This document shows, in pieces, positions 1,303-30,015 of a DNA stretch of 64,000 nt. A program made the position numbers and the translations under genes. Each line of letters opens with the position of its first letter. Positions within the stretch are counted from its first letter, which is position 1. The notes under the pieces were generated by a model. That model searched no databases. It was given only the letters and a program-made list of their open reading frames with translations, and had not been told where the DNA came from. The stretch lies in NCBI GenBank assembly GCA_046292385.1, contig JBKBRF010000018.1, forward strand, positions 32,001 through 96,000, given 5' to 3'. This stretch comes from Armatimonadota bacterium. Lineage in GTDB: Bacteria; Armatimonadota; SYMT01.

Positions 1303-3207
1303 ATGGGCTTTGACGGACTGCGGGTGGTGGCCCTGGAGAGCCGCCGCGCGAAGGAGATGGAGTCGATCCTCCGCAGCTACGGCGGCGAGCCGCTGGTAGC
1401 GCCCTCCATGCGGGAGCTGCCGCTCGACGAGAACGCGGAGGCGTTCGCCTTCGCGGAGAAGCTGCTGGCGGGAGAGATCGACGCCGTCATCTTCCTGACC
1501 GGAGTCGGCGCGCAGGCGCTGGTCCAGGCGCTCGAGTCGCGCTACAGCCGGGACGAGATCGTGGATGCCCTTTCCGGCGTCACCACCGTGGCACGCGGAC
1601 CGAAGCCGGTGAAGGCGCTGCGAGAGCTTGGGGTGCCGGTCGGTCTCACCGTCCCGGAGCCGAACACCTGGCGCGAGATCCTGGAGACGCTGGAAAGCGA
1701 GCCGCGCGGGATCGACCTGAAGGGCGCCCGGATCGCCGTGCAGGAGTACGGCCTGCCGAACGACGCGCTGACCGACGGCCTCCGCGAGCGCGGCGCGGAA
1801 GTGACGACGGTCCGCGTCTACCGCTGGGCGTTGCCGGAAGACCTGGAGCCGCTGCGAGACGCCATCCGGGAGCTCGCCGAAGGGCGCGCGCAGGTGCTCC
1901 TCTTCACCAGCTCCAACCAGGCGACCCACCTGCTGCAGGTCGCCGCGGAGATGGGGCTGGAGGCGCCGCTTCGAGACGCGCTCGATCGGATCGTCGTCGG
2001 CTCGATCGGGCCGACCTGCACCGAGACGCTGACCCAGTACGGTATTCCGGTCGACGTGGAGCCGGAGCATCCCCGCATGGGGCACCTGGTGCGCGAAACG
2101 GCGGAGCGCGCCGGCGAGATCCTGAAGCGGAAGCAGTCCGCCCCCGCCGCGCCGCGCGCCTCCGCCCCCGCGGCCGAGCCGTGGAACGACGCCCCGTTTC
2201 TGAAGGCGTGCCGCCGCGAGCCGACCCCCTACACGCCCGTCTGGCTGATGCGACAGGCCGGCCGCTACATGCAGGAATACCGGGAGGTCCGCGCCCGCCA
2301 CAGCTTCCTGGAGCTCTGCAAGAACCCGGAGCTCGTGGCGGAGGTGACGGTCTTCGCCGCGGAGCGGATCAAGGCGGACGCCGCCATCATCTTCGCCGAC
2401 ATCCTGCTGATCGTGGAGCCGCTGGGGCTGAACCTGGAGTACAGCAAGGGGGACGGCCCGGTCATCTCTCCCGTGATCCGGGAGAGCGCCGACATCGACC
2501 GGCTCTGCGAGGTCGATCCCGACTCCCTCTCCTACGTCTACGACGCGGTCCGCGCCACCCGCCAGGCGCTCGATCCGAAGACGCCGCTGATCGGCTTCTG
2601 CGGAGCGCCGTTCACCCTCGCCTCGTACATGATCGAGGGCGGCGGCTCGCGAAACTACGAGAATACGAAGTCGCTGATGTACCGCGACTCCGGCGCCTGG
2701 CACGCGCTCATGGATCGGATCGCCCGGGGGCTGATCGGTTACGTGAACCGGCAGGTCGAAGCCGGGGCGCAGTGCATCCAGATCTTCGATAGCTGGGTCG
2801 GCTCCCTCGGGCCGGAGGACTACCGCGAGTTCGTGCTCCCCCACTCCCGCACCCTGATCCAGGGCATCACCCCCGGTGTGCCGGTGATCCACTTCGGCAC
2901 CGGAACCGGCACCATGCTGCGCGACATCCGGGATGCCGGCGGCGACGTGATCGGCCTCGACTGGCGCACTCCGATCGACCGCGGCTGGGCGGAGGTGGGG
3001 TACGACCGCGCCGTCCAGGGCAACCTCGACCCGCTGATCCTCTTTGCGGAGCCGGAGTATATCGAAAAGCGCGCCCGGCAGATCCTGGACCAGGCGGAAG
3101 GCCGCCCCGGCCACATCTTCAACCTGGGCCACGGCATCCTGCCGAAGACCCCCGTCGACCACGTGGTCCGGCTGATCGAGTACGTCCACGAGTACTCCAG
3201 CCGCTGA
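1303..3207 (+). CDS. hemE: Fused uroporphyrinogen-III synthase (HemD-like N-terminus) / uroporphyrinogen decarboxylase (HemE C-terminus)
   Basis: N-terminal ~270 aa with FLTGVG, ARGPKP, VYRW, FTSS, SIGPTC (HemD); C-terminal PVWLMRQAGRY, GFCGAPFTLASY, QIFDSW, QGNLDP, IFNLGHG (HemE). Start could be 1276 (TTG) or 1303 (ATG). Confidence 0.92.
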   Translation: MGFDGLRVVALESRRAKEMESILRSYGGEPLVAPSMRELPLDENAEAFAFAEKLLAGEIDAVIFLTGVGAQALVQALESRYSRDEIVDALSGVTTVARGPKPVKALRELGVPVGLTVPEPNTWREILETLESEPRGIDLKGARIAVQEYGLPNDALTDGLRERGAEVTTVRVYRWALPEDLEPLRDAIRELAEGRAQVLLFTSSNQATHLLQVAAEMGLEAPLRDALDRIVVGSIGPTCTETLTQYGIPVDVEPEHPRMGHLVRETAERAGEILKRKQSAPAAPRASAPAAEPWNDAPFLKACRREPTPYTPVWLMRQAGRYMQEYREVRARHSFLELCKNPELVAEVTVFAAERIKADAAIIFADILLIVEPLGLNLEYSKGDGPVISPVIRESADIDRLCEVDPDSLSYVYDAVRATRQALDPKTPLIGFCGAPFTLASYMIEGGGSRNYENTKSLMYRDSGAWHALMDRIARGLIGYVNRQVEAGAQCIQIFDSWVGSLGPEDYREFVLPHSRTLIQGITPGVPVIHFGTGTGTMLRDIRDAGGDVIGLDWRTPIDRGWAEVGYDRAVQGNLDPLILFAEPEYIEKRARQILDQAEGRPGHIFNLGHGILPKTPVDHVVRLIEYVHEYSSR

Positions 3208-3903
3208 TTTTTCGACACAGAGGGACACAGACGAACCAGCAGAGGAACACAGCGCGGCTGATGCCGCAACCAAACTCACGGCGGCGGGAGAAAGAGTCTC
3301 TCGGCGAGATCGTCATCGCTCCGGGAGTCCACCCCGCGCCCTCCCCGCCCTGCGGGCGCAAAGCTGGTCGTGCTGCACCGGCTTGGGGCAACCCGCCGGC
3401 TGCCGACCGCGCCCAGACCCGAGGCGCCCGGAGGGTGCCAGTTGTGACCACCCCTGGCAGGGGTGGTAGCTCGAAGGGTCGGGAGGCAGCCCGTGAGCTC
3501 CCCTGTCGGCACGGGTTACGCTTCCTGGCGCGGGAAGGGCTTCTCGACGAAAGCTCCCGCAGCGGCCTGCTAACGGAGCGCAGCGGAGTGTGAAAAGGCC
3601 GCGGAGGGCCTTCGTCGCGGGAGGGCTGCCTCCCGGCACAAGGGCTCGGGGTCGGGTTACGGGATCGATTCTGCAGCTCGAAGAGAAGCAAAAGCGCCAC
3701 ACAACTGGCACCCTCCGGCTCCGCGCGGCGCAGGCGCGCGATGACCACCAGCAAAACCTGCGCATCCCGGCCCGACTCTCGCGGTGAGTAGTACAGAGCC
3801 TTTAGGATTGGGCGGTACCCGCTGTGGCGTTGGCACGCTGCAGTCCGTGCCGGAGATCTGTGTCTGTTCTGTCGGTTCTTCTGTGTCCCTCTGTGTCGAA
3901 AAA
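3207..3903. repeat. Inverted pair of ACACAGAGGGACACAGA-type REP-like repeats bracketing the intergenic region
   Basis: TTTTCGACACAGAGGGACACAGACGAACC near 3210 is the near-perfect reverse complement of GGTTCTTCTGTGTCCCTCTGTGTCGAAAA at ~3874-3902. Confidence 0.8.
3411..3718 (+). ncRNA. Putative structured RNA / dispersed element, copy A (family unassigned)
   Basis: Homologous to 29301-29567(-) and 29661-29886(+); perfect 19-bp closing inverted repeat 3428-3446/3700-3718; 13-bp helix 3480-3492/3623-3635. Confidence 0.55.
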
Positions 3904-3911
3904 CTCCACCC

Positions 3912-4442
3912 CTACCGGCCGGGACCCGGCTGGAACCTCCGCTGCCGGGGTGGTCCGAACGGCGCCGCGCCTGGGTCGACGAGGTGATACTCCGCAGCCC
4001 GCTGGACGTGCCAGCGGCCCCACCGGTACCGCAGCCGCATCAGGTAGCGTGTGGTGGCGACGTCGTAGACGCACGCGCTGGCGCGGAGATCGACCACGAA
4101 CGGGCCTCGCCACTGCAGGTCGCCGGCACGGAGCAGCACCCACGGCGGGGCGTTGGCGGTGCCGCTGGTCCAGGCGGGGTCCGCCGACGGGCAGGCCGAG
4201 ACCTCCTGCACGGTGGCGCCCGCTCCCCCGAACCGCGCCAGGAGCGCGCGGGGCGGGTCCACGTCGTCCTCAGGGTGACTCGAAAGGTAGTAGGCGCCCG
4301 GCGAGGGGTTCTGGCGCTCCATGAGGTGCCGCAGCGCCGCCTCGCGGACCGCGGCGTCCTGCATCACGGGCCAGTTCGCGATGTAGACGCAGCCGCCGAG
4401 AACCACCGCGAGAGCGATCCCGAGCCGGACGATACGCCGCAT
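3912..4442 (-). CDS. Hypothetical exported/membrane-anchored protein
   Basis: MRRIVRLGIALAVVLGGCVYIA N-terminal hydrophobic segment; GGGAGAGG RBS upstream of ATG 4442. Confidence 0.65.
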   Translation of the reverse strand: MRRIVRLGIALAVVLGGCVYIANWPVMQDAAVREAALRHLMERQNPSPGAYYLSSHPEDDVDPPRALLARFGGAGATVQEVSACPSADPAWTSGTANAPPWVLLRAGDLQWRGPFVVDLRASACVYDVATTRYLMRLRYRWGRWHVQRAAEYHLVDPGAAPFGPPRQRRFQPGPGR

Positions 4443-6164: not shown

Positions 6165-6578
6165 CTACCCTCCCTGGCACCCGAGCCAGTGCTCCGGAAG
6201 CAGCTCCCGGAGCGGGACCACGCGGTCGCGCGCCAGCACCACCCCGGTGTCCAGGTTCCCGGGATCGATCTGAACCATCAACTCCCGGCAGCGCCCACAC
6301 GGCGGCACGATCGCAGCCCCGGCGACGGCCACCACCAGCTCGATCGCGGTTTCCCGCGCCTTCAGCATCTCGGCCACCGCGGCGTGCTCGGCGCAGAAGC
6401 CGATGCCGCACGCCAGGTCGAGGCAGATGCCGGTAAACACTCGTCCGCTCCGGGTGCGGAGCGCCGCCGCGCAGGAGCCGGCGGAGAAGTCCCGTCCCAG
6501 GGAAAACTCGCCGTAAACCGCTTCGGCGGCTTTCAGCAGCTCGTCGATCTCGGATGGATCGAGTGGGGCTATCGACAT
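6165..6578 (-). CDS. Cytidine deaminase-like zinc deaminase
   Basis: GFCAEHAAV and PPCGRCRE zinc motifs; real start likely ATG 6578. Confidence 0.85.
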   Translation of the reverse strand: MSIAPLDPSEIDELLKAAEAVYGEFSLGRDFSAGSCAAALRTRSGRVFTGICLDLACGIGFCAEHAAVAEMLKARETAIELVVAVAGAAIVPPCGRCRELMVQIDPGNLDTGVVLARDRVVPLRELLPEHWLGCQGG

Positions 6579-6762
6579 TCCGTTTCCGTCCTCCTGCCGC
6601 GTCGGCCGGCAGCAGATTCCAATCACTGCCGGAATTCTCCCTGCCAGCGCTGAGGAATTTACCTTCGCCAGCCAAGAATCCGGAACCCGTTCCGGGTTTG
6701 CCGGGTCTGCCACCTGTCCGCGGCGTTTCGAGGAGAGGCGCTGGCGGAAAGACGTAGACGAG

Positions 6763-7236
6763 GTGACGAGGATTATGAACGCAAGTCTCAGGAAAGTATG
6801 GGCCTCGCTCGGCGCGGCAGTGCTCGGGCTGACGATGCTCACCGTGATAGACGTCAAGCCCGCGGACGCCCGGCCGCCGGCACATGCCCCGGCGCATGGC
6901 TACCGCCGGAAGCAGGCGGCGCGCACCTACCGGACCTACCGGCCGGCTTACTCGCGCACCCGGCCTTCCCAGTACACGGTGTACCGGCGGATGCAGCCGT
7001 ACCGGCGCGACCGCCGCTACTCGACCTACAACCGGTACTCTCGGTACAACCGCTCCAGTACATACCGCACCAACCGGTATCCCCGCGCGAAGGATATCGA
7101 CCGGGACGGCGTCCGGAATCGATATGACCGCGACATGGACGGCGACGGTCGCCGCAACCATTGGGACAAGGACGTCGACGGTGACGGCCGCCGGAACCGG
7201 AATGACGATCACCGACGGAACCCGAAGCGCCGCTAA
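6763..7236 (+). CDS. Secreted Arg/Tyr-rich protein with three DxDxDG calcium-binding-type repeats
   Basis: Signal peptide ending PADA; PPAHAPAHGYR motif; DIDRDG, DMDGDG, DVDGDG repeats. Confidence 0.8.
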   Translation: MTRIMNASLRKVWASLGAAVLGLTMLTVIDVKPADARPPAHAPAHGYRRKQAARTYRTYRPAYSRTRPSQYTVYRRMQPYRRDRRYSTYNRYSRYNRSSTYRTNRYPRAKDIDRDGVRNRYDRDMDGDGRRNHWDKDVDGDGRRNRNDDHRRNPKRR

Positions 7237-7286
7237 CCGGCACGATCGGTAGATGCCTGGGGCACTTTCGTCCAGCCCCACTCCAG

Positions 7287-7320
7287 AGATGAGCCATCCC
7301 GACCCTGGGGTGGCTCATCT
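7287..7320 (+). terminator. Hairpin, probable terminator
   Basis: AGATGAGCCATCCC / GGGGTGGCTCATCT inverted repeat downstream of 6763-7236. Confidence 0.55.
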
Positions 7321-7484
7321 CGCATTTGGAGAGCCCTGCCCTTGGGAAATGCTGACCGTCGGGGTCGCATCACCCGCGGGAAGGGCTCTTACGCATCCGG
7401 AGTATGCGTCTCGCTGTACCGAGGGAAGCTGCGATCTCTGCGCCGCCTCGCGGGCGGCCCGGTGAGCTCTCCGTCTCGCGGCGT

Positions 7485-7514
7485 TTGACTTCGCTTTATG
7501 GGGGTCGCTATAAT
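7485..7514 (+). promoter_or_regulatory. Sigma70-type promoter for rpoZ-dnaJ-prmA
   Basis: TTGACT-18 nt-TATAAT in high-GC background, 47 nt upstream of rpoZ. Confidence 0.7.
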
Positions 7515-7561
7515 CGCACGGGCTTTCCCGACCTCCCAGAAGAGAGATCGAAGAAGAGATC

Positions 7562-8020
7562 ATGATCCTCCAGTCCACCGACGAACTCGAAAAGCAGATC
7601 GGGAACAAGTATTCCCTGGTCATCGTGGCTGCCAAGCGGGCACGGCAGCTGAAGGAGGGTCACGCCCCTCTCGCCACCGATCCCTCCCCCAATCCGATCA
7701 GCCTGGCGCTGCGTGAGATTCAGGAAGGGCAGATCGGCTCTATCGCTCCGCCCGTGGAAGAAGTGGCGCCGGCGCCGCGCGATCTGATCTCCGATCTCGT
7801 CACGGGGGCCGACTTCGACCTGGATGAGGACCTCGATCTCGAAGACAGCGACGCGGTGGACGATCTCGCCGCGCTGCTGGTCGGCGAAGACGACGAGACC
7901 GAGGAAGAGGAGGCGGAAGCCGATACCGATGACGATCTCGCGACGGATGACGACACGGAAGATAGCGAGGACGCCGACGAGTCGGACGAGGCCGAGGAAG
8001 AGGACGCTGACGAGGAGTAG
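7562..8020 (+). CDS. rpoZ: RNA polymerase omega subunit with long acidic C-terminal tail
   Basis: NKYSLVIVAAKRARQL...NPISLALREI omega core followed by an Asp/Glu-rich tail. Confidence 0.9.
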   Translation: MILQSTDELEKQIGNKYSLVIVAAKRARQLKEGHAPLATDPSPNPISLALREIQEGQIGSIAPPVEEVAPAPRDLISDLVTGADFDLDEDLDLEDSDAVDDLAALLVGEDDETEEEEAEADTDDDLATDDDTEDSEDADESDEAEEEDADEE

Positions 8021-8089
8021 TAGCGGAAAGGTCTTCCGCACCGCGTCTGCGGACGGTCGCGTGCCCGGGGAGTGCGGAGTCGCGCAGCG

Positions 8090-9292
<1,203 letters not shown>

Positions 9293-9369
9293 TCCTCCCT
9301 TGTCTTCAGAAGGCGCTGCCGGGTTCCGGCGGCGCCTTCCGCTTTTCGGGTCGAACTTTCGAGGCACCC

Positions 9370-10296
9370 ATGCGCTGGACCGAGATCTCCCTGCACGTCC
9401 CCCGCTCGCTCACTGACGCCGTCTCCGCCGCGCTGACGGAGGGCGGCTGCGCCGGGACCGTCATCACCGATCCGCGCGCCGTCTCCAGCGATCCGTTCGC
9501 GGAGTGGTCCGCACCTGAGGGCTCCGCGGCAAACGGGGACACCTGCCGGGTGTCCGGCTATCTCCCGGTCGACGACCGCCTGGAAGGCACCCTCGACGAG
9601 ATCCAGGGGCGCCTCCGGATCTTGAAAGAAGCCGGGCTGGAGCTGGAGACGGAGCTGACGCTGCGGATGGTGGAGGACGACGCCTGGGCCGATGCCTGGA
9701 AGCGCTACTTCAAGCCGTCGCGGGTAGGCCGGCGGTTCGTGATCAAGCCGTCCTGGGAGGAGTGGGACGCCGCCGCGGACGACCTCGTGATCGAGCTCGA
9801 CCCCGGCATGGCGTTCGGCAGCGGTGCCCATCCCACCACCCGGCTCTGCCTTGGCCTGCTGGAGTCGCTCCCGCTGCGCGGGGCGCGCGTGCTCGACTGG
9901 GGCACCGGGAGCGGAGTCCTCGCCATCGGCGCCGGCCGCCTCGGCGCGAACCCGATCCTGGCGATCGATCTCGACCCGCTCGCTGCGAGGGTCGCCGGGG
10001 AGAACGTGGAGCGCAACGGCCTGGAGGGCGTGATCGAGTGCGGCGTCGGCAGCATCGAGGCGCTGCCTGACAAGCCCGCATACGACCTGATCATCGGAAA
10101 CATCGTCGCCGACCCGATCATCGGCGCCGCGCCGGAGATCCGCCGCCGCCTCGCGCCCGGCGGCCACGCGCTCGTCAGCGGCTTCCTTGAGTCCCGCGAG
10201 CCGGAAGTCCGCGCCGCCCTCGAAGCAACCGGCCTGAAGACCGTAGACTGCACCGGCGAAGAAGACTGGCGAGCGCTCCTCCTCCGGCTGGCGTGA
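9370..10296 (+). CDS. prmA: Ribosomal protein L11 methyltransferase
   Basis: WADAWKRYFKP, LDPGMAFGSGAHPTT, VLDWGTGSGVLAI; follows dnaJ; start ATG 9370. Confidence 0.95.
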   Translation: MRWTEISLHVPRSLTDAVSAALTEGGCAGTVITDPRAVSSDPFAEWSAPEGSAANGDTCRVSGYLPVDDRLEGTLDEIQGRLRILKEAGLELETELTLRMVEDDAWADAWKRYFKPSRVGRRFVIKPSWEEWDAAADDLVIELDPGMAFGSGAHPTTRLCLGLLESLPLRGARVLDWGTGSGVLAIGAGRLGANPILAIDLDPLAARVAGENVERNGLEGVIECGVGSIEALPDKPAYDLIIGNIVADPIIGAAPEIRRRLAPGGHALVSGFLESREPEVRAALEATGLKTVDCTGEEDWRALLLRLA

Positions 10297-10304
10297 GGCT
10301 CCCT

Positions 10305-10640
10305 CCGAACCTGATTAACCGCAGAGACGCAGAGGACGCGGAGAGAAGCCGAACCTGATTCACCGCCAAGAACGCCAAGCTCGCCGCGAGGGACCGGAAG
10401 AGACAAACCCCGGGGCCGCTCTACGGTGCTCGACAGGCGAACCAGGCCCGCCCCTTGGTCCCCGCTCTGCGTCCCCTCTGCGCTCTCCGTGTCCTCTGCG
10501 GTAAACCTGGTTCGAACCGGGGCCGCAGTACCGTTTAGGTGAAGCGGTGCAGGCCCCTCCCCCTGGTTCGGGTTCTCTCCGCGCTCTCCGCGTCTCTGCG
10601 GTGAAATCAGGTTCGGATTCTGGTTCGGTTCCTCTCGGTG
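10305..10640. repeat. Cluster of CCGCAGAGACGCAGAG-type REP-like inverted repeats
   Basis: CCGCAGAGACGCAGAGGACGCGGAGAGA (10319-10346) inverted against CTCTCCGCGCTCTCCGCGTCTCTGCGG (~10575-10601) and ~10465-10501; GAACCTGATT/AATCAGGTTC flanks; related copy at ~32361-32388. Confidence 0.8.
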
Positions 10641-10658
10641 CGCTCTGTAGTGAGATCC

Positions 10659-11369
10659 CTAGGGCGCTCCCAGCCAGCGGGCGAGCTGCACCAGGAGCGG
10701 GGCGTAGAGCAGGGCCGGGAGGAGGTTGCTCACCCGGATCGCTTTCAGCTCCAGCAGGCGGAAGCCGAGGCCGAGCATCATCACGCCGCCGGCGGCGAAG
10801 AGCTCCTGCTGCATCCTCGCATCCGAGAGCACCGGGGCGAGCGCGCCGGCGCTGAGGGTGAGGGCCCCCTGCACCACCAGCACCGTCCCGGCGGAGAGCA
10901 GCACACCCCAGCCGAGTGCCGAGGCGAACGCCACCGCGCTGATGCCGTCCAGCGTCGCCTTCGTGGCGAGGAGGCCGTAGTCGCCGCGGAGCCCGTCGTT
11001 CAGGCAGCCGAGGAGCGTCATCGGGCCGACGCAGAAGAGGATGCTGGTGACGACGAACCCGCGGGCGAAGTCGCCCTCGGCCTTCCCCCGTCCGAGCTTC
11101 CGCTCCGCGAGCTCCCCCAGCCGCTCGGTCCCCCGCTCGATCCGGAGCGCCTCTCCCGTGAGCCCGCCGAGCACCAGGCTGCCGAGGAGCACCAGCGGGT
11201 TGCCCGTCTTGAGCGCCATGTCGGCCCCGATCACCAGGGTGATCAGCGCCACCACGTGCATCACCGTCTCGCGCATCCGCTCCGGGAGCCGCTCTCCCAG
11301 CGCGCGTCCCGCCACCGCGCCGGCCACCACCGTCGTCACGTTGATGAGGGTCCCGATCAAGGCTGACAT
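10659..11369 (-). CDS. DUF554 (YqgA/YdfK-like) membrane protein
   Basis: GTLINVTTV, FCVGPMTLLG, KATLDG, RVSNLLPAL motifs; multiple TM helices. Confidence 0.9.
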   Translation of the reverse strand: MSALIGTLINVTTVVAGAVAGRALGERLPERMRETVMHVVALITLVIGADMALKTGNPLVLLGSLVLGGLTGEALRIERGTERLGELAERKLGRGKAEGDFARGFVVTSILFCVGPMTLLGCLNDGLRGDYGLLATKATLDGISAVAFASALGWGVLLSAGTVLVVQGALTLSAGALAPVLSDARMQQELFAAGGVMMLGLGFRLLELKAIRVSNLLPALLYAPLLVQLARWLGAP

Positions 11370-11538
11370 CTCCAGCGCGCGCGCCGTATGGGGAAACGAG
11401 GGAGCCGGAACGGCCGAAGGTGGGTCCTAACCGGAGTGCCCCGGGTCGCGGCGCGCCTCGACGCGTGCCCGCGAGCAGGGGTAGAATAGACGCGAGCTAT
11501 CGCCCAGCGCTAGACCATAAGTACGGGAGAGACTGCAG

Positions 11539-12039
11539 ATGATGAACCGATTTGGCCGGTTCGCCCTGACGACGGTCGCCACCCTGGCGATCGCGGCGGC
11601 GGCGCTGGCTGACCCCACCCCCGCCGGCAAGGCGGCTCCCGCCTGGAATGGGAAGACCACGGCCGGCAAGACGATCGGCTCGTCCCAGTTGAAGGGAAAG
11701 GTCGTCCTCGTCAACTTCTTCAACAACTACTGAGGGGCCTGCCGTGAGGAGTATCCTCACCTTCAAGCCCTGCAGAAGAAGTATGCCGCCAAGGGGTTCA
11801 CGGTGGTCTCCGTGAGCAACGACGAGACGGCTCAGGAAGCCGGCAATTTCGCCAAGCAGATCAAGGCGACGTTCCCGGTCGTGCACGATCCGAAGAGCGC
11901 CGTCTACGGCAAGTTCGGAGTCTCCGTGGCGCCGACCAACATCCTCGTAGACCGCAAAGGAAAGGTGGTCTGGAGCCACGAGGGGGTCGACGTCCCGAAG
12001 ATGAACGCGGCGGTGGCGCGCGCAGTCGCCGCGAAGTAG
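11539..12039 (+). CDS. TlpA/ResA-like thioredoxin-fold selenoprotein (Sec at TGA 11731-11733, UxxC)
   Basis: ORFs 11539-11733 and 11803-12039 are in one frame; read-through gives LKGKVVLVNFFNNY-U-GACREEYPHLQALQKKY; signal peptide; hairpin 11744-11760. Confidence 0.85.
11744..11760 (+). promoter_or_regulatory. Bacterial SECIS-like hairpin
   Basis: GTGAGGA-GTA-TCCTCAC perfect 7-bp stem starting after a 10-nt spacer 3' of the in-frame TGA. Confidence 0.65.
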
Positions 12040-12062
12040 TCCGCCACCGGACGGATGCTGTG

Positions 12063-12096
12063 GAGAGGGAGCGAGGCGCCGCCTCCGCTCCCTCTT
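12063..12096. terminator. Hairpin between convergent genes
   Basis: AGAGGGAGCG-AGGC...GCCT-C-CGCTCCCTCT inverted repeat. Confidence 0.5.
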
Positions 12097-12119
12097 CTGA
12101 TTCCCGGATCCGCCGAGGA

Positions 12120-12263
12120 TCAGGCGACCGGCAGCGAGTGGGCCACGGCCGGTGCCAGCGGCGGCTGCGCCGGGGCGGCGCGGCGCCCCAGCAGGTAGCC
12201 CGCGGCCGACACCAGGGTCGCCGCCGCCAGGGCGCAAAGGAAGGCTCGTCGTACGGGGTTCAT
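12120..12263 (-). CDS. Small 47-aa membrane/exported peptide (below ORF-track cutoff)
   Basis: MNPVRRAFLCALAAATLVSAAGYLLGRRAAPAQPPLAPAVAHSLPVA; GGAG RBS; fills an otherwise empty gap. Confidence 0.5.
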   Translation of the reverse strand: MNPVRRAFLCALAAATLVSAAGYLLGRRAAPAQPPLAPAVAHSLPVA

Positions 12264-12389
12264 CACGGGTGCTCCACCCGGCAGAGAAGCAACCTTCGTG
12301 CCAATCGAGCCGTCGCCCGGAGAAGGGTCGCGCCCGCGCCGGGGCTAACGTGGCTTCAGGACTTTCCCCCAGCCACGGAGACCACCGCT

Positions 12390-13292
12390 ATGGACCGCCG
12401 CCAGTTCCTCACCACCGCCGCCCTGCCGCTCGGCGCGGCGCTCGGCGCTGCCGTGCCCGCGGCGGCGCATATTGACCCTGCCTCCCGCCGCTACACTCCC
12501 GGCGCGCCGTACCGGCTTGGGGTGGCGGCCTACTCGTACCGCCAGTTCCTGCAGGGCGCGCAGAAGAACATGACGCTCTTCGACTTCATCCGCCGCGCTG
12601 CGGAGCTCGGCACCGACGGCGTGGAGCTGACGGAGTACTACTTCGAGAAGCCGGTCATCGACGACTACCTGCTGCGCCTGAAGCACACCGCGCACCTGTG
12701 GGGCCAGACGATCACCGGCACCCCGATCGGCAACACCTTCACCCACCCGGCCGGTCCGGAGCGGGACAAGCAGGTGGAGATTTACAAGAAGTGGGTCGAC
12801 GTCTCCGCCGTCCTCGGGTCCCCCGCCATCCGCACCTTCGCGGGCAGCGCGCCGCAGGGCACTTCCGAGGCGCAGGCGCGGCGCCACGTGGTGGAAACGC
12901 TGGAGGAAGTCTGCGAGTACGCCGGCCGAAAAGGGGTCTTCGTGGCGCTCGAGAACCACGGCGGCGTGGTCGCGGAAGCCGATGGCCTGCTCGAGATCGT
13001 CAAGGCGGTCGAGTCGCCGTGGCTCGGCATCAACCTGGACAGCGGCAACTTCCGCACCGAAGACCCCTACGGCGACCTGGCGAAGTGCGCCCCGTACGCG
13101 GTGAGCGTGCAGTATAAGGTCGACATGCACCCGAAGGGAAAGCCCGCCGAGAAGGCCGACTTCCCCCGGATCGTCAAGATCCTGAAGGACGCCGGCTACC
13201 GCGGCTTCATCACCCTGGAGTACGAAGGCCGGGAAGACCCGCTCGTCGCCATCCCGCGCCACCTGGCGGAGATGCGTGCGGCGATGGGCTAG
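12390..13292 (+). CDS. Tat-exported sugar phosphate isomerase/epimerase (AP endonuclease 2 / xylose isomerase-like TIM barrel)
   Basis: MDRRQFL Tat signal; ALENHGG, NLDSGNF, GYRGFITLEYEG. Confidence 0.88.
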   Translation: MDRRQFLTTAALPLGAALGAAVPAAAHIDPASRRYTPGAPYRLGVAAYSYRQFLQGAQKNMTLFDFIRRAAELGTDGVELTEYYFEKPVIDDYLLRLKHTAHLWGQTITGTPIGNTFTHPAGPERDKQVEIYKKWVDVSAVLGSPAIRTFAGSAPQGTSEAQARRHVVETLEEVCEYAGRKGVFVALENHGGVVAEADGLLEIVKAVESPWLGINLDSGNFRTEDPYGDLAKCAPYAVSVQYKVDMHPKGKPAEKADFPRIVKILKDAGYRGFITLEYEGREDPLVAIPRHLAEMRAAMG

Positions 13293-13564
13293 CGGCGAAA
13301 GCCGACGTGGTGCCCCGGAGGGGGCTCCCCCGCCCCCCCGGGCGGGTGTATTGGCTCGCGGAAGTCTTCCCCGCCCCGACGTGTCGTGGTGAAGTAGCGG
13401 CCCGAATAGGTCCCGGAGCCCCGGCGCTGCGGCGGTATTCCCGCTGCGCGGGAAGCGATGGCAAGTGTCGGGCGCGGTAAAGTTACGCCGCTGGCGGCGC
13501 CGGCGAGATTTGCCGCCGTCCGGCGCTCGGGAGGGGCGAGAAACGCTCGGCCGGCTTCGATTCC

Positions 13565-13736
13565 CCACCCCAGTCATCCTGAACGCAGTGAAGGATCTCG
13601 GCAGCCGCAAGGGAACGGAGTACGCAGGCGGGTGACGCCGACTCTACCTCCGGTGCCCTTCCGCGCGCGAGGCCTCCCGCTCCGGCGAGAAGGGGGCGAC
13701 GTAGATCCTTCACTCCGTTCAGGATGACTGGGGTGG
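13565..13736. repeat. REPIN-like unit: 34-bp inverted repeats (GTCATCCTGAACG.AGTGAAGGATCT family)
   Basis: 13565-13598 vs 13703-13736, one mismatch in 34 bp. Confidence 0.85.
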
Positions 13737-13979
13737 AGGACGGCAGAGCCGCTCGTCCTCACCGGCAGAACTTACGCTGCGCCTCGGGTGCCTTCCCGCG
13801 TGTGACAGGAGCTAGCGCACTCCGCAGACTGCACCGTGGCAGTCTCCCCCTCGGCGTGAGGGAATCCTTCCCGGGCCGGCGTGTGGAGTGCGAATGCTTG
13901 CCCCCAGTACGGGGGGCTTGCTTTCGCCCCCGCGTCAGCGGGGTGCAAGCCCGTCGATCGCGCGAACAGTTCTCCGGTA

Positions 13980-14167
13980 CGAAGGGAATCGATCGCCAGG
14001 CAGGCCCCTTGGCTGCTACTCTACGTCTCCTGACGCTGCAGGGCCGCGACGTGGTCGAGAATTCCACTGGGCAAGACGAGCATCACCGAACCCGCACGTT
14101 CCAGGAAGAGTACCTCGACCTGCTCCGAGCCCACGGCGTTCAGTATGACGTACGCTATCTCTGGTAG
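13980..14167 (+). pseudogene. C-terminal remnant of IS200/IS605-type (REP-associated-like) Y1 transposase
   Basis: VVENSTGQDEHHRTRTFQEEYLDLLRAHGVQYDVRYLW matches the YIxxQxEHH...F.EE...L...YD.RYLW tail; upstream part degenerate; flanked by palindromes (14190-14280, 13810-13950). Confidence 0.75.
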
Positions 14168-14284
14168 CCGGGCGGGCCGATGCACGGCGGGACGTCCTGG
14201 AGGGACGCCGGAGAATAGCCGGGGGTGCTAACCCCCGAAAGGACCGGCGCAGAACGGTGCGCCCCAGCAGGGGCGCCGGAGCCG

Positions 14285-16321
14285 TCACTCCTTCGCGCCG
14301 GCCGCCATCAGGAGCCGGATCACTGCCGCGCGCCTTTCAGGCAGCACCGGGTCCCCGGCTCGTGCGGCGTAATACCTCGCAATCGAGAGTGCTGTATCTC
14401 CACGAAGATCCTTCGCATTCGGATCAGCTCCGGCGGCGAGAAGCATCTGAATGACGTCCTCGTCGCCCGCGAAGGCCGCGTTGGTCAGAGGTCGGTTCCT
14501 CGGCAGGCCGTTCGGATCGGCGCCGGCGCCGAGCAGTAGCTTTACAATCTCCCGCATCTCCGGTGAGCCCCCGATTGCCGCGGACGCAAGCGGCGTAACT
14601 CCGCCGAAGACTGGCGCATTGATGTCAGCCTTCAGTTCCAGCAACGCGCGTACGCGAAGCGGATCGGCATCCTGGATGGCCCAAATCAGCAAGGTTGCGC
14701 CGCGGCGATCGACTCCATTCAGATCGAACCCGCGGTCCCGCAGCGCCTCGTAGAGCGCGCGCTTCTCCGCCAGGTCATTCGACGCGCTCAGCCGCCGCTG
14801 GGTGAGCGTCCAGAATTCCTCGCGCGCGACCCGTTCCTGCTCCTTGGCCTCATTGAAGCGGTCCGTCGCCGCCGGAGCCCCGGGTGGGACCACGAACTCG
14901 AACACTCGATCCTTCCACACCAGGTAGGTGAGGTCTAACCGCTCGGCCGAGGGCGGCACTTCAGGACCGAACTCGTACAACCGCTCCGATCGCGGTGCGC
15001 CGTACGAGTTGTAGCGAGTTTGAATATCGCGTCCGTTCTGGTCCTTCACGATGACCGCAGCACGCGCGGAACCCGGCCCCGCCGTGACGATCCGCAAGTC
15101 CGCTCGATAGTAGGGACTCCCACCACGACCGGGCTCTGACCAACCGGGCCCGGCGATGCCCCTCGCGTGAACGGTAATCCCCTTCCCCTGCTTCTCGGTT
15201 TCCAACAGCTCGACGAGCTCGCGTGCCTTCGGAGCCGCGACATCTCGATGCGTCCAGACAAGATCGGCCGTCTCGCTCGATTCCGGTCCGACGTACTCGA
15301 AGAGCAGGCTCACTTTCCAGGCCGGCTCCCGCCGGCAGAGTGTGGAAGGGAAGACGAGCCACATCCGTCCGTCAGCTAACGCACTCCGGAAGACCGGGCG
15401 ATAGAGCGCGCCGTTTCCGTATCGGTCCTCCAGTCGAACTCCCCTGGGGGCCCAGTGCAGCAGCGCGTTCCGATCTCCCTCGAGCTCGAGCGTCACGCGC
15501 GTCCAAGTGAGAAGCTCGTGGGGTTCATCGACGACTCGCTCGGGCCACGAGAGCGGTTGGAATGGAGAGAGGTCGGGTTGCGAGCTGCGGTGGATCTCCT
15601 CCCAGTCGAGCCCGGCGGTGAGCGATTTCAGCGTCACCGTTAACCGATCTCCCGTTCGCCGGGCCGGGACTGCCTCTGCAGTAAGCTCGTTCGGGGGCGG
15701 CCGAAGTCGGGTCGCAGTCCGGAACTCGTGACGGGAGCCGTCCCGCTCATAGACCCAGATCCGCAGCTGGTCAGTATGCCGTGGGAAGAGCTCGAGCACG
15801 GTGACCACCGTCAGGCTCTGCCGGTCCGAGTTGAGCGTGCCGCTGCTGCTTCCGCCCGGGGTAAAGCGGACCAGCTTCTCGCCATCGGTGACGGTGGTGG
15901 ACGGCCAGCGGCGTGAATCGATCCGGCAGCCATGCTCGTCGGCCACCACGATCCACGGTGACCACTCCGTGCCCGGCTTCGCCCCGGTAATCCGCCACCA
16001 GAGCGCGAGGGTTTCCGGTGCCTCGCCCAGTCGCCGCTCGATCATCGCGCGGTGCGGAAGCGGTACCGGAGGCTGCTCGGTAACGATATCGGCGTCCGGG
16101 AGCACTCCAGGGTTTTGTGCGGCGAAGTCGTGCACCTTGCCGAAAGTTGTCCCCAAAAGGGTCAAGGTAGAGCCGTCCTGCAACCGCTTGCCGACGGCGG
16201 GCTCCGCTCCGAGCCGCGCGTTCCCCACGACGAGGGCAGCAACGGTCGCACCCAAGATCACAGCCGTTCGGAGTGGATAGATCATCGTCGTTCTCGGTGA
16301 AATGAGGCTACCTCGCATCAA
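14285..16321 (-). CDS. Secreted protein with C-terminal ankyrin repeats (paralog 1)
   Basis: Signal peptide; GATLLIWA, GVTPLASAA, LLLGAGADPN, GDTALSIA ankyrin motifs; start uncertain (16321 or ~16284). Confidence 0.8.
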   Translation of the reverse strand: MMRGSLISPRTTMIYPLRTAVILGATVAALVVGNARLGAEPAVGKRLQDGSTLTLLGTTFGKVHDFAAQNPGVLPDADIVTEQPPVPLPHRAMIERRLGEAPETLALWWRITGAKPGTEWSPWIVVADEHGCRIDSRRWPSTTVTDGEKLVRFTPGGSSSGTLNSDRQSLTVVTVLELFPRHTDQLRIWVYERDGSRHEFRTATRLRPPPNELTAEAVPARRTGDRLTVTLKSLTAGLDWEEIHRSSQPDLSPFQPLSWPERVVDEPHELLTWTRVTLELEGDRNALLHWAPRGVRLEDRYGNGALYRPVFRSALADGRMWLVFPSTLCRREPAWKVSLLFEYVGPESSETADLVWTHRDVAAPKARELVELLETEKQGKGITVHARGIAGPGWSEPGRGGSPYYRADLRIVTAGPGSARAAVIVKDQNGRDIQTRYNSYGAPRSERLYEFGPEVPPSAERLDLTYLVWKDRVFEFVVPPGAPAATDRFNEAKEQERVAREEFWTLTQRRLSASNDLAEKRALYEALRDRGFDLNGVDRRGATLLIWAIQDADPLRVRALLELKADINAPVFGGVTPLASAAIGGSPEMREIVKLLLGAGADPNGLPRNRPLTNAAFAGDEDVIQMLLAAGADPNAKDLRGDTALSIARYYAARAGDPVLPERRAAVIRLLMAAGAKE

Positions 16322-29144: not shown

Positions 29145-29166
29145 AGTCCGGGGTTTCTTGGGAGTT

Positions 29167-29202
29167 GCAGGGCCGTCCGGTGGGACGGCCCTGTGCTTTT
29201 TC
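29167..29202 (+). terminator. Rho-independent terminator of guaB
   Basis: CAGGGCCGTCC/GGACGGCCCTG stem followed by TTTTT. Confidence 0.7.
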
Positions 29203-29300
29203 TGGGTCGAATCGCGGGTTTGTCGGCGGGGCGGAAGGCAGCGATGTCACCGCCGGTTCGCCCCCGCGCCCCCTCACTTGCTCGTCGCACAGCAGCGACC

Positions 29301-29567
29301 ATCCCGAGCGTCCGACCCCGCGCCCTTGTGCCGGGAGACAGCCCTCACGCGACGAAGGCCCTCCGCCGGCCCTCCCACGCCCTTCGGGCTAACGGGCCGC
29401 TCCGGAAGTGCGCTCCGTTGAGCTCATCCCGCGCCACCCCGCCCTACCACGACAGAGGCTGAGTTCACGGGCCGCCTCCCGGCCCACCCGTACGGGTGGT
29501 AAACCTTCGAGCGTCCCGAAAGCGTTCGGGACACATGTGGCGCCCTGCGGGCGCCTCGGTTTCTGGC
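29301..29567 (-). ncRNA. Putative structured RNA / dispersed element, copy B
   Basis: Reverse complement aligns with 3411-3665; 15-bp helix 29330-29344/29469-29483 closes with G-U pairs only on the minus strand. Confidence 0.55.
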
Positions 29568-29660
29568 TTCTACCCAGGCGGCGCGTCATCTCACTTGACG
29601 CTGGCACTATCGGCGGGCGGCCTGCCTATGGAGTCCGGAGGCGGTGCCGGAGGCAGCGAC

Positions 29661-29886
29661 GGAGGGCTCCACTTGTGGCCACCCCTGGCGAGGGGTGGCT
29701 GCTTGAGCCGAGGGGAGCGGCCCGTGAACCTCGGCATGGTGGAAAACGTGGTTGTCGATCGCGGAACGCAGCATGGCGGGGATCACGCCCGGAGCAGCCC
29801 GCTAGCGGAGCCGAAGGCGGAGCGTGAATGGGCAGCGGAGGGCCAGCCACGCGGGAGGGCCGCTCCCCTCGGTGAGGGCACGGGGA
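29661..29886 (+). ncRNA. Putative structured RNA / dispersed element, copy C
   Basis: Aligns with copy A; perfect 16-bp helix 29708-29723/29857-29872 with different sequence. Confidence 0.5.
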
Positions 29887-30015
29887 GTACCTTCGGAGAG
29901 ATGCCGCAGCCGTAGGCGAATCCATGTCACTCCACGGACACAGGACTCGCTCACAACCTCAGCCAACGAAAGAGCACACCCTTTCCACGCCCTGCCGCGC
30001 CAGAGGTAACCCGAG

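Follow-up and report, generated by a model that had tools for sequence, protein, structure and literature searches.

Positions 3205–3797 of the window, by which we mean the whole 64,000-nucleotide stretch of Armatimonadota DNA under analysis, are occupied by a 593-base composite repeat. Copy A of a non-coding, structured element is part of this composite, and two further copies (B and C) lie elsewhere in the window. The features of all three are listed in Table 1. The initial annotation had described three loci that share ordered sequence blocks, and these align with a mean column identity of 66%. The loci are real but were drawn too narrowly. The conserved unit starts at a CCAGAAACC-like leader and the P0 hairpin, upstream of the GGAGGG block, and at its 3' side it runs on through two further hairpins. 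It measures approximately 270–310 nt, contains at least eight helices, and has a core of approximately 220 nt.

Table 1. Coordinates of the element copies in the window and of the parts of the copy A locus
Feature	Position	Strand	Remarks
Left arm of hairpin-type intergenic repeat	3205..3255	.	Short GACACAG-like units; insertion context, outside the structured element
Module M2	3256..3345	+	Composite left end; starts right after CACAG with CGCGGCTGATGCC
Spacer module S	3346..3420	+	Upstream of A-type cores; 7–10 blastn matches per strand
P0 hairpin	3423..3439	+	7 bp, GGA triloop
(N)TGTG junction, then H1	3440..3467	+	H1: 3447–3454 with 3460–3467
Main domain	3468..3646	+	Closed by H2: 3468–3472 with 3642–3646
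H3	3478–3492 with 3623–3637	+	15 bp; inside main domain
H4	3562–3568 with 3596–3602	+	Inside main domain, beside variable hairpins and an H5-like hairpin
3' hairpins	3647..3699	+	Small triloop, then GCTGC-type loop; linker of A-type tail
Stub of inverted copy	3700..3797	-	Composite end ...GGTGAGTAGTACAGAG at 3797
Right arm of heptamer-unit hairpin repeat	3858..3905	.	Inverted partner of 3205–3255
Copy B, B-type	29280..29575	-	Left member of head-to-head pair; covariance model and nhmmer matches
Copy C, C-type	29620..29908	+	Right member of head-to-head pair; long P0, full core

The REP-like pair noted around copy A was recovered as two inverted, multicopy arms (26 and 28 matches for the left and right arms, respectively), but these arms are separate from the structured element. 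The left arm gives 9–17 blastn matches per strand along its length, and at several loci a composite directly follows the CACAG unit of such an arm. Module M2, mapped from 16 composites, gives 14–21 blastn matches per strand. Elsewhere this module corresponds to the 3' tail, in reverse complement, of a C-type copy that has been deleted here. At the start of the stub (3700–3718), the P0 3' strand and TGTG stand in reverse complement, followed by the reverse complement of module U. A perfect 19-bp inverted repeat (3428–3446 with 3700–3718), previously read as closing copy A, is present but is not the closing helix of the family: it consists of the first 17–19 nt of an inverted, truncated copy plus the upstream module, and occurs only in long A-type composites. 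The stub region also holds a terminator-like hairpin on the minus strand (3715–3690). On the antisense strand of module U there is an outward promoter-like motif (TCGACA, 16 nt, TAGTAC), which faces away from the core beside it and of which the copy in the window has only a degenerate form. Among the short contigs of three public DNA runs, one joins 3236 to 3880, the shorter side of the join being only 22 letters long.

Copies B and C form a pair that recurs as one unit (29280–29908). Copy B has the leader CCAGAAACC, a short P0, a replaced H1, an extra hairpin after GCTCGAAGG, the full core, and the 3' hairpins. The hairpin that follows TGTG is indeed a different one in copy B, and the long helix stays paired in each of the three copies although its sequence changes, both as first described.

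Fold and covariation of the element

The predicted core fold runs in the order leader, P0, UGUG junction, H1, main domain and two 3' hairpins. H2 closes the main domain, which contains the 15-bp H3, variable hairpins and H4. Copy A folds at -171.7 kcal/mol (z = -4.35), which none of 100 shuffled sequences equalled, and its sense strand folds 16 kcal/mol better than its antisense strand. We assessed covariation in 57 sequences from two genomes against a curated fold of 60 pairs. The fold leaves 87.6% of cells paired, compared with 71.1% after shuffling and 39–46% when the partners are slid. Changes on both sides of a pair occur in 527 cells against 179 expected and affect 43 of the 60 pairs, and the covariation score is 0.427 against 0.155 after shuffling and 0.07–0.11 for slid partners. 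None of 500 shuffles reached any of these measures, although shuffle controls overstate significance for related sequences, and these copies are paralogues whose counts are non-independent; the slid-partner controls keep that relatedness. RNAalifold predicted 39 pairs, 26 of which are compensated.

Selection on the fold, as proposed in the initial annotation, is borne out by covariation that is both strong and strand-specific, and pair-preserving changes predominate between the nearest copies. In 79 nearest-neighbour comparisons, differences amount to 0.0715 per paired site and 0.1377 per unpaired site. Both copies keep a canonical pair in 185 of 269 differing pairs; 110 of the 185 are double compensations, against 3 double breaks. 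Over the four helices H1–H4, G-U combinations far outnumber A-C (289 versus 33 in total, 181:4 in H2 and 73:8 in H3), so the folded strand is the one originally annotated. A U-G pair in H2 is conserved in 123 of 125 copies and in 56 of 57 aligned sequences.

The individual helices are well supported. H1 and H2 are each 98.2% paired, with both-side changes in five of the seven H1 pairs, and H4 is 96–100% paired. H3 is paired in 92.8% and changes on both sides in 12 of its 15 pairs. The P0 helices (helices 1–3) reach 68–78%, with both-side changes in 15 of 16 pairs, and in C/D-type copies P0 is longer, consists of two helical parts and has GGA/GGA internal loops. Helix 11 at the 3' side is 78.6% paired and shows mostly G-C to G-U changes.

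Conservation extends to unpaired positions. In TGTG, the T, G and G do not vary among the 57 sequences, and the main domain contains the invariant unpaired blocks CCCGTGA, CGCGGG, CCCG.AGC, GCTA.C, G.GTGAA, GCGGAGGGCC and CGCGGGAGGGC. These blocks are invariant across genera, and optional hairpins are inserted at matching points in different genera. The fold itself is kept across four genera despite sequence divergence. GGA and GGAGG motifs are frequent in the loops. Many loops are G-N-A triloops closed by C-G, a type typical of stable DNA mini-hairpins. We also considered a start-stop mini-ORF at the TGTGA block (GGAGG, spacer, NTG-TGA) and rejected it because the first base is C in 17 of the 57 sequences; the block is better explained as a junction.

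Copy number, relatives and genomic arrangement

The element is multicopy, as first suggested, with approximately 130 copies in this genome (G000). A search with nhmmer gave 151 matches, 126 of them full length, and 129 loci are at least 170 nt long. Copy A as a blastn query found 60 matches, and A-type copies are 84–94% identical to one another. Of 151 Armatimonadota genomes scanned with a covariance model, 4 contain the element, and these belong to a single family (f1). Among the relatives, the model matched 17 times in G005, 8 times in G006, 4 times in G004, and not at all in G001 and G002; G003 is likewise without the element. By blastn alone the element was detected only in G005, the other relatives requiring the covariance model. 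Tandem arrays occur in G006, in G004 and in one metagenome contig, and reiterated 3' ends of the element are found in relatives. Exact-pattern scans yielded 30 motif loci in metagenomes, where the element was present at 5 and chance accounted for 25, and 28 loci in the genome collection, 20 of them due to chance. In a tree of the copies, sequences cluster by genome (support of 97/98 for the G000 clade), which fits lineage-specific expansion.

The initial annotation had matched the element to no known family, and our searches agree. Across the whole window Rfam 15 gave no family at the gathering threshold, and at E-values up to 10 it gave only chance miRNA and lncRNA matches far below threshold. 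Rfam likewise had no match to three composite loci and a G005 locus, and blastn against phage and plasmid collections found no match to the element. Full-text literature searches on Armatimonadetes non-coding RNA and repeats, and on structured MITE-like repeats in bacteria, listed nothing relevant. The element is a lineage-restricted family of an uncultured soil bacterium and its closest relatives, with no match among catalogued RNAs or mobile elements.

Close pairs are arranged in one way only: all 27 are head-to-head (5' to 5'), and none is tandem or convergent within 500 nt. The spacer between paired 5' ends can be as short as approximately 30 nt. Close pairs in G005 are likewise inverted. 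Recently amplified composites measure approximately 420 nt and 880 nt. Sixteen composites share the exact ends CACAG/CGCGGCTGATGCC... and ...GGTGAGTAGTACAGA(G)/ (the slash marking the junction) in unrelated flanks. Their boundaries are insertion-like: sharp, beside ACAG or CACAG, and often inside hairpin repeats of GACACAG units. The composites lack terminal inverted repeats, the end CGCGGCTGATGCC... having no inverted counterpart in the end ...GGTGAGTAGTACAGAG. ACAG stands at both junctions in nearly all 16 composites; it may have arisen as a 4-bp duplication, mark a fixed target or belong to the element. The core behaves as cargo, because the ends of the recently active composites fall outside it and vary from one subfamily to another. 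Left-end and right-end matches always adjoin a core or a contig end, and no such pair in the genome encloses a gene, as an autonomous master copy would. Because contigs break at composite repeats, a master copy may exist unassembled.

The copies show no linkage to neighbouring genes, as judged with a crude GC3-based ORF picker. Of the downstream genes, 62 share the strand of the copy and 67 do not; in gaps between tandem genes, 21 copies are sense and 18 antisense; 28 of 99 classifiable loci lie between convergent genes; and the genes beside the copies have no function in common. The sequences upstream of single copies bear no relation to one another and reveal no conserved promoter. Positions 3000–4100 contain no sigma-70-like site, the consensus being that of sigma-70, from which the promoters of this phylum may differ. 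A U-tract terminator after the 3' hairpins was not found in the 3' flanks of any copy. With neither a conserved promoter nor a strand bias, one copy in two would lie antisense to whatever transcript reads through it. In one public RNA run, represented by short contigs only, there is almost no cover on the core. Contig C40 holds eight copies in one orientation within 26 kb, in a prophage-like module among phage structural genes. The orientation of single copies relative to local GC skew gave p = 0.045 for all 81 and p = 0.005 where |skew| exceeds 0.01; without the eight clustered C40 copies the values are p = 0.33 and p = 0.11.

Candidate enzymes and CRISPR arrays

The initial annotation had suggested looking for copies beside reverse transcriptase, TnpB/IscB or Y1 genes, and no such adjacency was found. 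The element shows no linkage to any transposase or reverse transcriptase gene, and no copy adjoins a TnpB, IscB or IS110-type gene. The TnpB zinc ribbon (PF07282) has no match in this genome, with the control positive in 8 of 14 genomes, and RVT_1 was not found in this genome. Two compact Y1 genes are present on contigs C51 and C22, flanked by REPs of their own, and the genome contains a classical RAYT-plus-REP system. We rejected these genes as partners: their flanks carry other repeats, and no core or composite end adjoins them. Y1-type genes occur in six of the seven genomes of the family, including the element-free G001 and G002. Across these seven genomes, the distributions of IS110 (DEDD), Y1 and Cas6e genes do not follow that of the element. 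Cas6e (PF08798) is present in G004, G005 and G002 and absent from G000 and G006. Nor did Y2_Tnp track the element, in a search whose control matched nowhere and which is therefore uninformative.

A connection to CRISPR arrays is seen in G005, where two type I-E arrays carry four copies at their trailer ends, oriented along array transcription. These copies start 5 nt after a degenerate repeat, and another repeat follows 70–95 nt downstream. Being sense-oriented inside or behind the arrays, these copies would belong to the array transcript. In the present genome, the S module of fuller copies contains a solitary look-alike of a type I-E CRISPR repeat, which is degenerate in the window copy. Aligned to the G005 repeat, the S modules of eight composites score 12–16, with 0–12 of 200 shuffles as high and the orientation matching; the window copy scores 6–8 and 13 other pair spacers score 5–8. 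The G005 array trailers look duplicated and the S modules are mutual copies, so these cases amount to approximately two independent observations. The two CRISPR arrays of this genome have other repeats and no adjacent copies, and in all genomes most copies have no CRISPR repeat nearby.

Nature of the element

The reading we prefer, to which we would give an even chance, is that copy A is a non-autonomous mobile repeat whose selected cargo is a structured RNA module, within a lineage-restricted family. The folded molecule would be RNA, supplied by read-through or by outside promoters, and the fold would serve either the element's own propagation or an interaction between RNA and protein. As for movement, the pattern of copies suggests that the element multiplied in this genome in three forms: single copies scattered through it, head-to-head pairs that join two diverged subtypes, and composites amplified recently, the last probably inserted beside ACAG/CACAG with sharp, non-inverted ends. 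If the fold works as RNA, the element would be a candidate for a new class of ribozyme, guide or protein sponge, and its many natural variants would make a rich covariation data set for structure modelling. The initial annotation had offered a multicopy structured RNA or a non-autonomous element mobilised as single-stranded DNA; that either/or survives testing.

Action of the fold in single-stranded DNA, as in a non-autonomous REP/REPIN-like or IS200/IS605-like element whose strand-specific hairpins an HUH/Y1-type enzyme would recognise in the course of replication-coupled transposition, strikes us as possible though unlikely. It would account for a strand-specific fold (G-T wobbles are tolerated in DNA as well), the abundant C-G-closed G-N-A triloops, the asymmetric composite ends beside a fixed ACAG/CACAG, the uniformly inverted doublets and the one-way series on C40, and it sits well with the tandem arrays and reiterated 3' ends in relatives and with the wide occurrence of Y1-type genes in the family. 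A conserved core that spans approximately 220 nt and contains both a multi-way junction and invariant unpaired blocks, however, goes far beyond what known single-strand transposons or REPs need. The recently active composite ends are subfamily-specific and outside this core, the compact Y1 genes have repeats of their own and Y1 genes persist where the element is missing, and the association with GC skew loses significance once the C40 cluster is removed. Should the fold nonetheless act in single-stranded DNA, no other DNA fold used by a bacterial mobile element would come near it in complexity. We regard as rather improbable a set of independently transcribed sibling sRNA genes that spread by gene duplication and have a host function, for example sequestering a factor that binds GGA or Shine-Dalgarno sequences. 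The frequent GGA/GGAGG loops, the pairing selection visible between close copies, the tandem arrays and the retention of fold and invariant loops across four genera and metagenome lineages agree with such genes. Single copies nevertheless lack a conserved upstream promoter and an intrinsic terminator, paired 5' ends can be separated by only some 30 nt, and 126 copies against 4–17 in sister genera, genome-wise clustering and sharp-ended composites resemble transposition.

Two readings give weight to the CRISPR arrays. In the broader one, which we hold to be doubtful, the core is a new functional RNA class that drives or guides its own spread as a ribozyme, a protein-recruiting RNA or a guide scaffold and is tied to type I-E arrays: the repeat-flanked G005 copies would be giant pseudo-spacers excised by Cas6e, the youngest composites would keep a solitary I-E-like repeat, and an RNA-level array parasite, regulator or inhibitor would later have colonised the genome. 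Very unlikely, in our judgement, is the narrower one, in which the element is itself a type I-E array component, a giant pseudo-spacer processed by Cas6e into a regulatory, anti-CRISPR or parasitic RNA, and the copies here are its escaped or orphaned descendants. The array-trailer copies and the correctly oriented repeat-like S module speak for it; the small number of independent observations, the distribution of Cas6e, the genome's own arrays and the scarcity of repeats near most copies speak against it. The repeat-flanked copies in the G005 arrays offer a concrete case in which a connection between CRISPR RNA processing and a structured non-coding element can be tested. We assign almost no probability to a role as riboswitch or cis-regulatory leader for downstream genes: copy C does lie 130 nt upstream of an ORF on the same strand, but the idea is contradicted by the even split of orientations, the unrelated neighbours and the loci between convergent genes. 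We find it scarcely credible, too, that these are inert, decaying repeats with covariation produced by shared descent alone. The paralogy of the copies and the leniency of shuffling would allow for this, but the collapse of pairing and score when partners are slid, the excess of double compensations over double breaks and a fold kept across four genera contradict it.

Bacterial intergenic repeats are usually short palindromes, and large ornate RNAs are usually single-copy. The present element, from a phylum that has hardly been studied, combines an intricate, strongly covarying fold of approximately 300 nt with insertion-like behaviour and approximately 130 copies, and has no known enzyme attached. 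REP/BIME and REPIN-RAYT systems resemble it in being high-copy, intergenic and non-coding, with a strand-specific fold and inverted doublets. REPs, however, are imperfect palindromes of approximately 20–40 nt, whereas the element is approximately 270–310 nt long, has a multi-way junction, invariant unpaired blocks and optional hairpins, and does not flank a Y1 gene. Unlike REPINs, its doublets are two complete, diverged copies facing 5' to 5'. ERIC/IRU, BOX, Correia/NEMIS and RUP repeats are also non-autonomous, multicopy, intergenic, independent of gene orientation, modular or mosaic, and fold-forming. They have terminal inverted repeats and simple hairpin folds, whereas the ends of the element are non-inverted and its ornate multi-helix domain covaries strongly and is kept across genera.

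Among guide and scaffold RNAs, the HEARO/IscB omega RNA, the TnpB omega RNA (reRNA) and the IS110 bridge RNA are likewise structured RNAs of 150–300 nt borne on mobile DNA, possibly multicopy, strand-specific and with asymmetric ends. Against this likeness, Rfam returned no HEARO match, the genome has no TnpB zinc ribbon, and IS110 does not co-occur with the element. Asymmetric ends, a short fixed motif and a strand-specific fold are shared with IS200/IS605-derived elements (PATEs) and their TnpB omega RNAs, but not a cognate TnpA or TnpB with common ends. The raiA, OLE, ROOL and GOLLD RNAs are of the same size class and, like the element, were discovered by comparison, have an intricate conserved fold and have no known biochemical function. 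They occur in one or a few copies per genome, in contrast to approximately 130 copies here and 4–17 in relatives with insertion-like boundaries, and their Rfam models gave no match. Integron attC sites share the precedence of structure over sequence, the folding of one strand, and same-orientation series beside genes, as on C40 and in G006. An attC site is a single imperfect hairpin of approximately 60–140 nt with R''/L''-L'/R' boxes, found in arrays beside an integron integrase. The element, by comparison, is branched and approximately 300 nt long, its orientation to cassette-like genes is inconsistent, and the C40 series lies in a prophage-like module.

Distribution of the element

The sequence details that the initial annotation listed for three intergenic loci of the window (copies A, B and C) are all present there, and the three loci can be aligned across their whole cores, the core being the conserved folded unit, with a mean column identity of 66%. 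Within the genome holding the window (G000; 7.04 Mb, 91 contigs, 69% G+C), blastn returned 60 matches to copy A and, with queries A, B and C pooled, 129 loci of at least 170 nt. A profile built from these 129 loci gave 151 nhmmer hits, 126 of which cover profile positions from 45 or lower to 255 or higher. Blastn against 40 relatives matched the element in G005 only. We also constructed a covariance model of 218 positions and 37 pairs, starting from an alignment of 57 sequences that comprises the three window copies, 40 further G000 copies (chosen from 47 with mutual identity below 82%) and 14 from a second genome; 51 rows were used, and the six omitted carry large insertions or a truncated end. 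Full-length matches to the model occur in four of 151 genomes sampled across the phylum (G000, G004, G005 and G006), all from the same family, f1. Scoring 150 candidates in each genome gave 17 matches in G005, 8 in G006 and 4 in G004, and none in family members G001 and G002. When 185,579 species genomes were scanned for an exact motif, 28 loci were found: eight are homologous, all from one Armatimonadota MAG, which was also the source of the 14 second-genome copies in the alignment, and the remaining 20 stayed without an nhmmer hit at E up to 10. The exact motif scan of metagenome contigs found 30 loci, five of which hold six true copies.

Rfam 15 yielded no match for the whole window at gathering thresholds, nor for three composite loci or a G005 locus, and searches around the loci at E up to 10 gave chance hits only, far under threshold. 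This bears out the earlier statement that no known family matches. Phage and plasmid collections gave no blastn match to the element, and the listings from a full-text literature search on such elements held nothing relevant. Rfam thus lacks the element, and nothing resembling it turned up in the collections searched. It is alike in kind to structured intergenic repeats and to RNAs borne by mobile elements, but is set apart from each known example by its size, the complexity of its fold, the structure of its ends and the absence of a partner gene.

Parts of the element and locations of associated features. Coordinates are those of the window unless a genome, contig (C) or outside locus (L) is named; P0 and H1-H5 are helices or hairpins.
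Feature	Location	Description
Copy A	3411-3718 (+)	
Copy B	29301-29567 (-)	
Copy C	29661-29886 (+)	
Leader	5' end of unit	Short, CCAGAAACC-like; AAACC kept in all genera
P0 hairpin	After leader	Short in A- and B-types
P0 in C- and D-types		Two-part helix with GGA/GGA internal loops and GGA triloop
(N)TGTG	Between P0 and H1	Nearly invariant
H1	After (N)TGTG	Hairpin
H2		Helix closing main domain; conserved U-G pair
H3		15-bp helix
Elements within H3		Variable hairpin region, H5-like hairpin, helix H4 with inner hairpin
Two further hairpins	3' end of unit	
Larger repeat around copy A	3205-3797	Continuous repetition by self-match depth
GACACAG-like hairpin repeat	Arms 3205-3255 and 3858-3905	Tandem units bounded by T5/A5 runs; the "REP-like pair" of the initial annotation
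Module U motif, window	3745-3797 (+)	
Module U of a C-type copy	G000 C2:5040-5100	
Terminator-like hairpin	29165-29200 (+)	Clean, intrinsic type with T-run; 3' of gene ending at ~29144, just left of copy B
Reiterated 3' motif	L138 2040-2170	Metagenome contig
Dispersed hairpin repeat	G000 C17:88546, C8:82730	Examples
Prophage-like region copies	G000 C40:13676-40014 (-)	Eight copies (loci L122, L123)
Compact Y1 gene	G000 C22:55100-56500	RAYT-like; flanks are a palindromic REP family of ~60 nt, dozens of copies genome-wide
Compact Y1 gene	G000 C51:25400-26800	RAYT-like; flanks are inverted GC-rich hairpins
Y1-like gene and element copy	L120 (G004:C207) 3246-3722 and 6347-6563	
Type I-E CRISPR locus	L111 (G005:C3:824000-842000) ~6400-15700	
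CRISPR arrays of G000	C28:80940-81964, C58:23081-24109	At least 15 repeats each, unrelated to type I-E form

Fold, strand and selection

The layout of the unit was read from the 57-sequence alignment and from the sequences that flank every copy on its 5' and 3' sides. Unpaired blocks with little or no variation between genomes are CCCGTGA, CGCGG, CCCG.AGC, GCTA.C, G.GTGAA, GGAGG, CGCGGGAGGG and AGGGC.(C/G)GGGG. Optional hairpins occur at identical points in different genomes of the alignment, namely 3' of GCTCGAAG, in the H1 loop and at the inner hairpin of H4.

RNAalifold predicts 39 pairs from this alignment, with compensatory changes in 26. In a curated 60-pair structure, 87.6% of 3276 cells are paired, compared with 71.1% in column shuffles (0 of 500 as high) and 39-46% when partners are slid by 1-3 columns. 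Changes on both sides number 527 cells against 178.6 in shuffles, and covariation is scored at 0.427, compared with 0.155 for shuffled and 0.07-0.11 for slid partners. The strongest helices are H1 and H2 (98.2% paired each), H3 (92.8%, with both sides changed in 12 of its 15 pairs) and H4 (96-100%). Differences between nearest neighbours (79 comparisons at 80-99.5% identity) amount to 0.0715 per paired site and 0.1377 per unpaired site. Among the 269 pairs that differ, 110 carry double changes that remain canonical and 3 carry double changes with a break, while single changes leave 75 canonical and 81 broken. Selection on the element's pairing is therefore visible over a short time scale. The earlier proposal that selection acts on the fold is upheld by the covariation, the slid-partner controls and these nearest-neighbour compensations.

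The strand was assessed from G-U/U-G against A-C/C-A combinations in 125 G000 copies, four of the 129 having been dropped for gaps above 12%. The ratios are 25:14 in H1, 181:4 in H2, 73:8 in H3 and 10:7 in H4, and one U-G pair is kept in 123 of the 125 copies. This excess identifies the folded strand as the one originally chosen. The folding energy of copy A is -171.7 kcal/mol (z = -4.35), and that of its complement -155.3 kcal/mol (z = -3.73).

Pairs, composites and their ends

All 27 instances of copies lying within 500 nt of each other in G000 are head-to-head, with 5' ends facing, and none is tandem or tail-to-tail. The paired members are always of different subtypes, a C-type with an A-, B- or D-type, and ~30 to ~100 nt of DNA separates their P0 stems. 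Head-to-head pairs are present in G005 too, with same-strand tandem arrays instead in G006, G004 and one metagenome contig. A maximum-likelihood tree built from 58 cores groups copies by genome; the G000 clade has support of 97/98, and G000 C-type copies are nested within it. Such clustering fits either lineage-specific expansion or concerted evolution, and it implies that the two pair-forming subtypes arose separately in G000 and the second genome.

Copy A is embedded in a larger repeat, or composite. Module maps give the usual long A-type composite as a left end (M2), a reversed C-type core, a spacer (S), an A-type core and a tail. This tail consists of an upstream module (U) together with the initial 17-19 nt of a core, both in reverse complement. 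In the window composite, the C-type partner has been deleted. The 19-bp inverted repeat reported at copy A is present; it does not close the copy, as had been proposed, and corresponds to the core stub in the composite tail. Sixteen composites aligned with 250-nt flanks have sharp boundaries and unrelated flanks. Homology begins with CGCGGCTGATGCC, immediately after CACAG, and stops after GGTGAGTAGTACAGA(G), and C-type single units of ~420 nt have both ends as in composites. The composite ends are not mutual inverted repeats, and ACAG is found at both junctions. Several composites, including that of the window, directly follow a CACAG unit of the separate GACACAG-unit hairpin repeat, which seems to be favoured as an insertion site, with entry right after that unit. 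Every match to a composite end has a core or the end of a contig next to it, and no gene is enclosed by such matches.

Within module U of C-type copies lies a conserved motif resembling a promoter (TCGACA, 16 nt, TAGTAC). It ends ~5 nt from the composite right end and faces outward, with the neighbouring core behind it, and its role may be that of a binding site or of an outward-directed or junction promoter. In one metagenome contig, a full copy is followed by four iterations of the 3'-terminal motif of the element (CTAGGGCTGGGGTCGACC-like), a pattern that points to slippage at the 3' end or to abortive events that recurred there.

Genomic context and competing readings

Gene context was taken from calls by a crude GC3-based ORF picker. 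In G000, element and downstream gene share a strand in 62 cases and are on opposite strands in 67; for the upstream gene the counts are 67 and 56. The 99 classifiable loci lie between tandem (50), convergent (28) and divergent (21) genes, against genome-wide gap shares of 67%, 16% and 17%, and single copies in tandem gaps are sense in 21 cases and antisense in 18. These counts argue against any role that needs read-through in a fixed direction from a neighbouring gene and rule out a cis-regulatory leader or riboswitch, which we regard as having almost no likelihood. Sequences upstream of single copies show no relationship to one another outside the leader, and window positions 3000-4100 hold no sigma-70-like site, by a consensus that may not be that of the host phylum; no promoter owned by the element is thus seen. 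That the copies are independent small-RNA genes is, in our estimate, quite improbable.

The data show that the fold is conserved, strand-specific and under continuing selection; that the copies are inert repeats is scarcely credible. They also show that the carrier repeat multiplied in one lineage and that its young members have transposon-like boundaries. Together, these properties lead us to read the element as a non-autonomous mobile repeat with a structured RNA module as its conserved cargo, a reading to which we give an even chance. The main rival, which has the fold acting in single-stranded DNA during transposition, is unlikely: it draws on the G-N-A triloops, the asymmetric ends adjoining a fixed motif and the cluster of copies in one orientation, but core size and complexity fit it poorly and the composite ends lie outside the core. 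A link to CRISPR RNA has a slim probability. In G005, one locus combines type I-E cas6e, cas1 and cas2 with two arrays of 61-nt period, the second array and two element copies lying between cas6e and cas1. Four copies sit at the trailer ends of the two arrays, and we infer that they are on the array-transcribed strand from cas gene direction, distal repeat degeneracy and the general form of type I-E repeats. Each starts 5 nt past a degenerate repeat, with another repeat 70-95 nt after, so that these copies would be within the array transcript, bracketed by predicted Cas6e sites. The trailers of both arrays resemble duplicates of one another and so represent about one or two independent events. 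The S module before A-type cores of G000 aligns to the G005 repeat in matching orientation with scores of 12-16 in eight composites; 0-12 of 200 shuffled repeats score as high, and 13 other pair spacers score 5-8. Since S modules are copies of one another, this likeness counts as one event. Cas6e has no match in G000, and no element copies lie beside the two CRISPR arrays of that genome.

A mobilising enzyme for the element was sought in the family genomes. G000 has no match to the TnpB zinc-ribbon or RVT_1 and five to Y1_Tnp, of which the two compact, RAYT-like genes are flanked by other repeats of their own; these represent a RAYT/REP system of the classical kind, distinct from the element. 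Among seven family genomes, Y1 genes occur in six (including the element-free G001 and G002), IS110-type genes in three and Cas6e in three, and none tracks the element. One of the four G004 copies lies on a short contig, 2.7 kb downstream of a gene for a Y1 transposase-like protein of 158-162 aa, which may be coincidence. Six of the eight same-strand copies on G000 contig C40 occupy short gaps in a prophage-like structural module, antisense to its genes (terminase, portal, capsid, head and tail completion). A dispersed hairpin repeat (AAGTCCCC, loop, GGGGACT), found at 22 G000 loci, lies ~60-90 nt upstream of two element copies.
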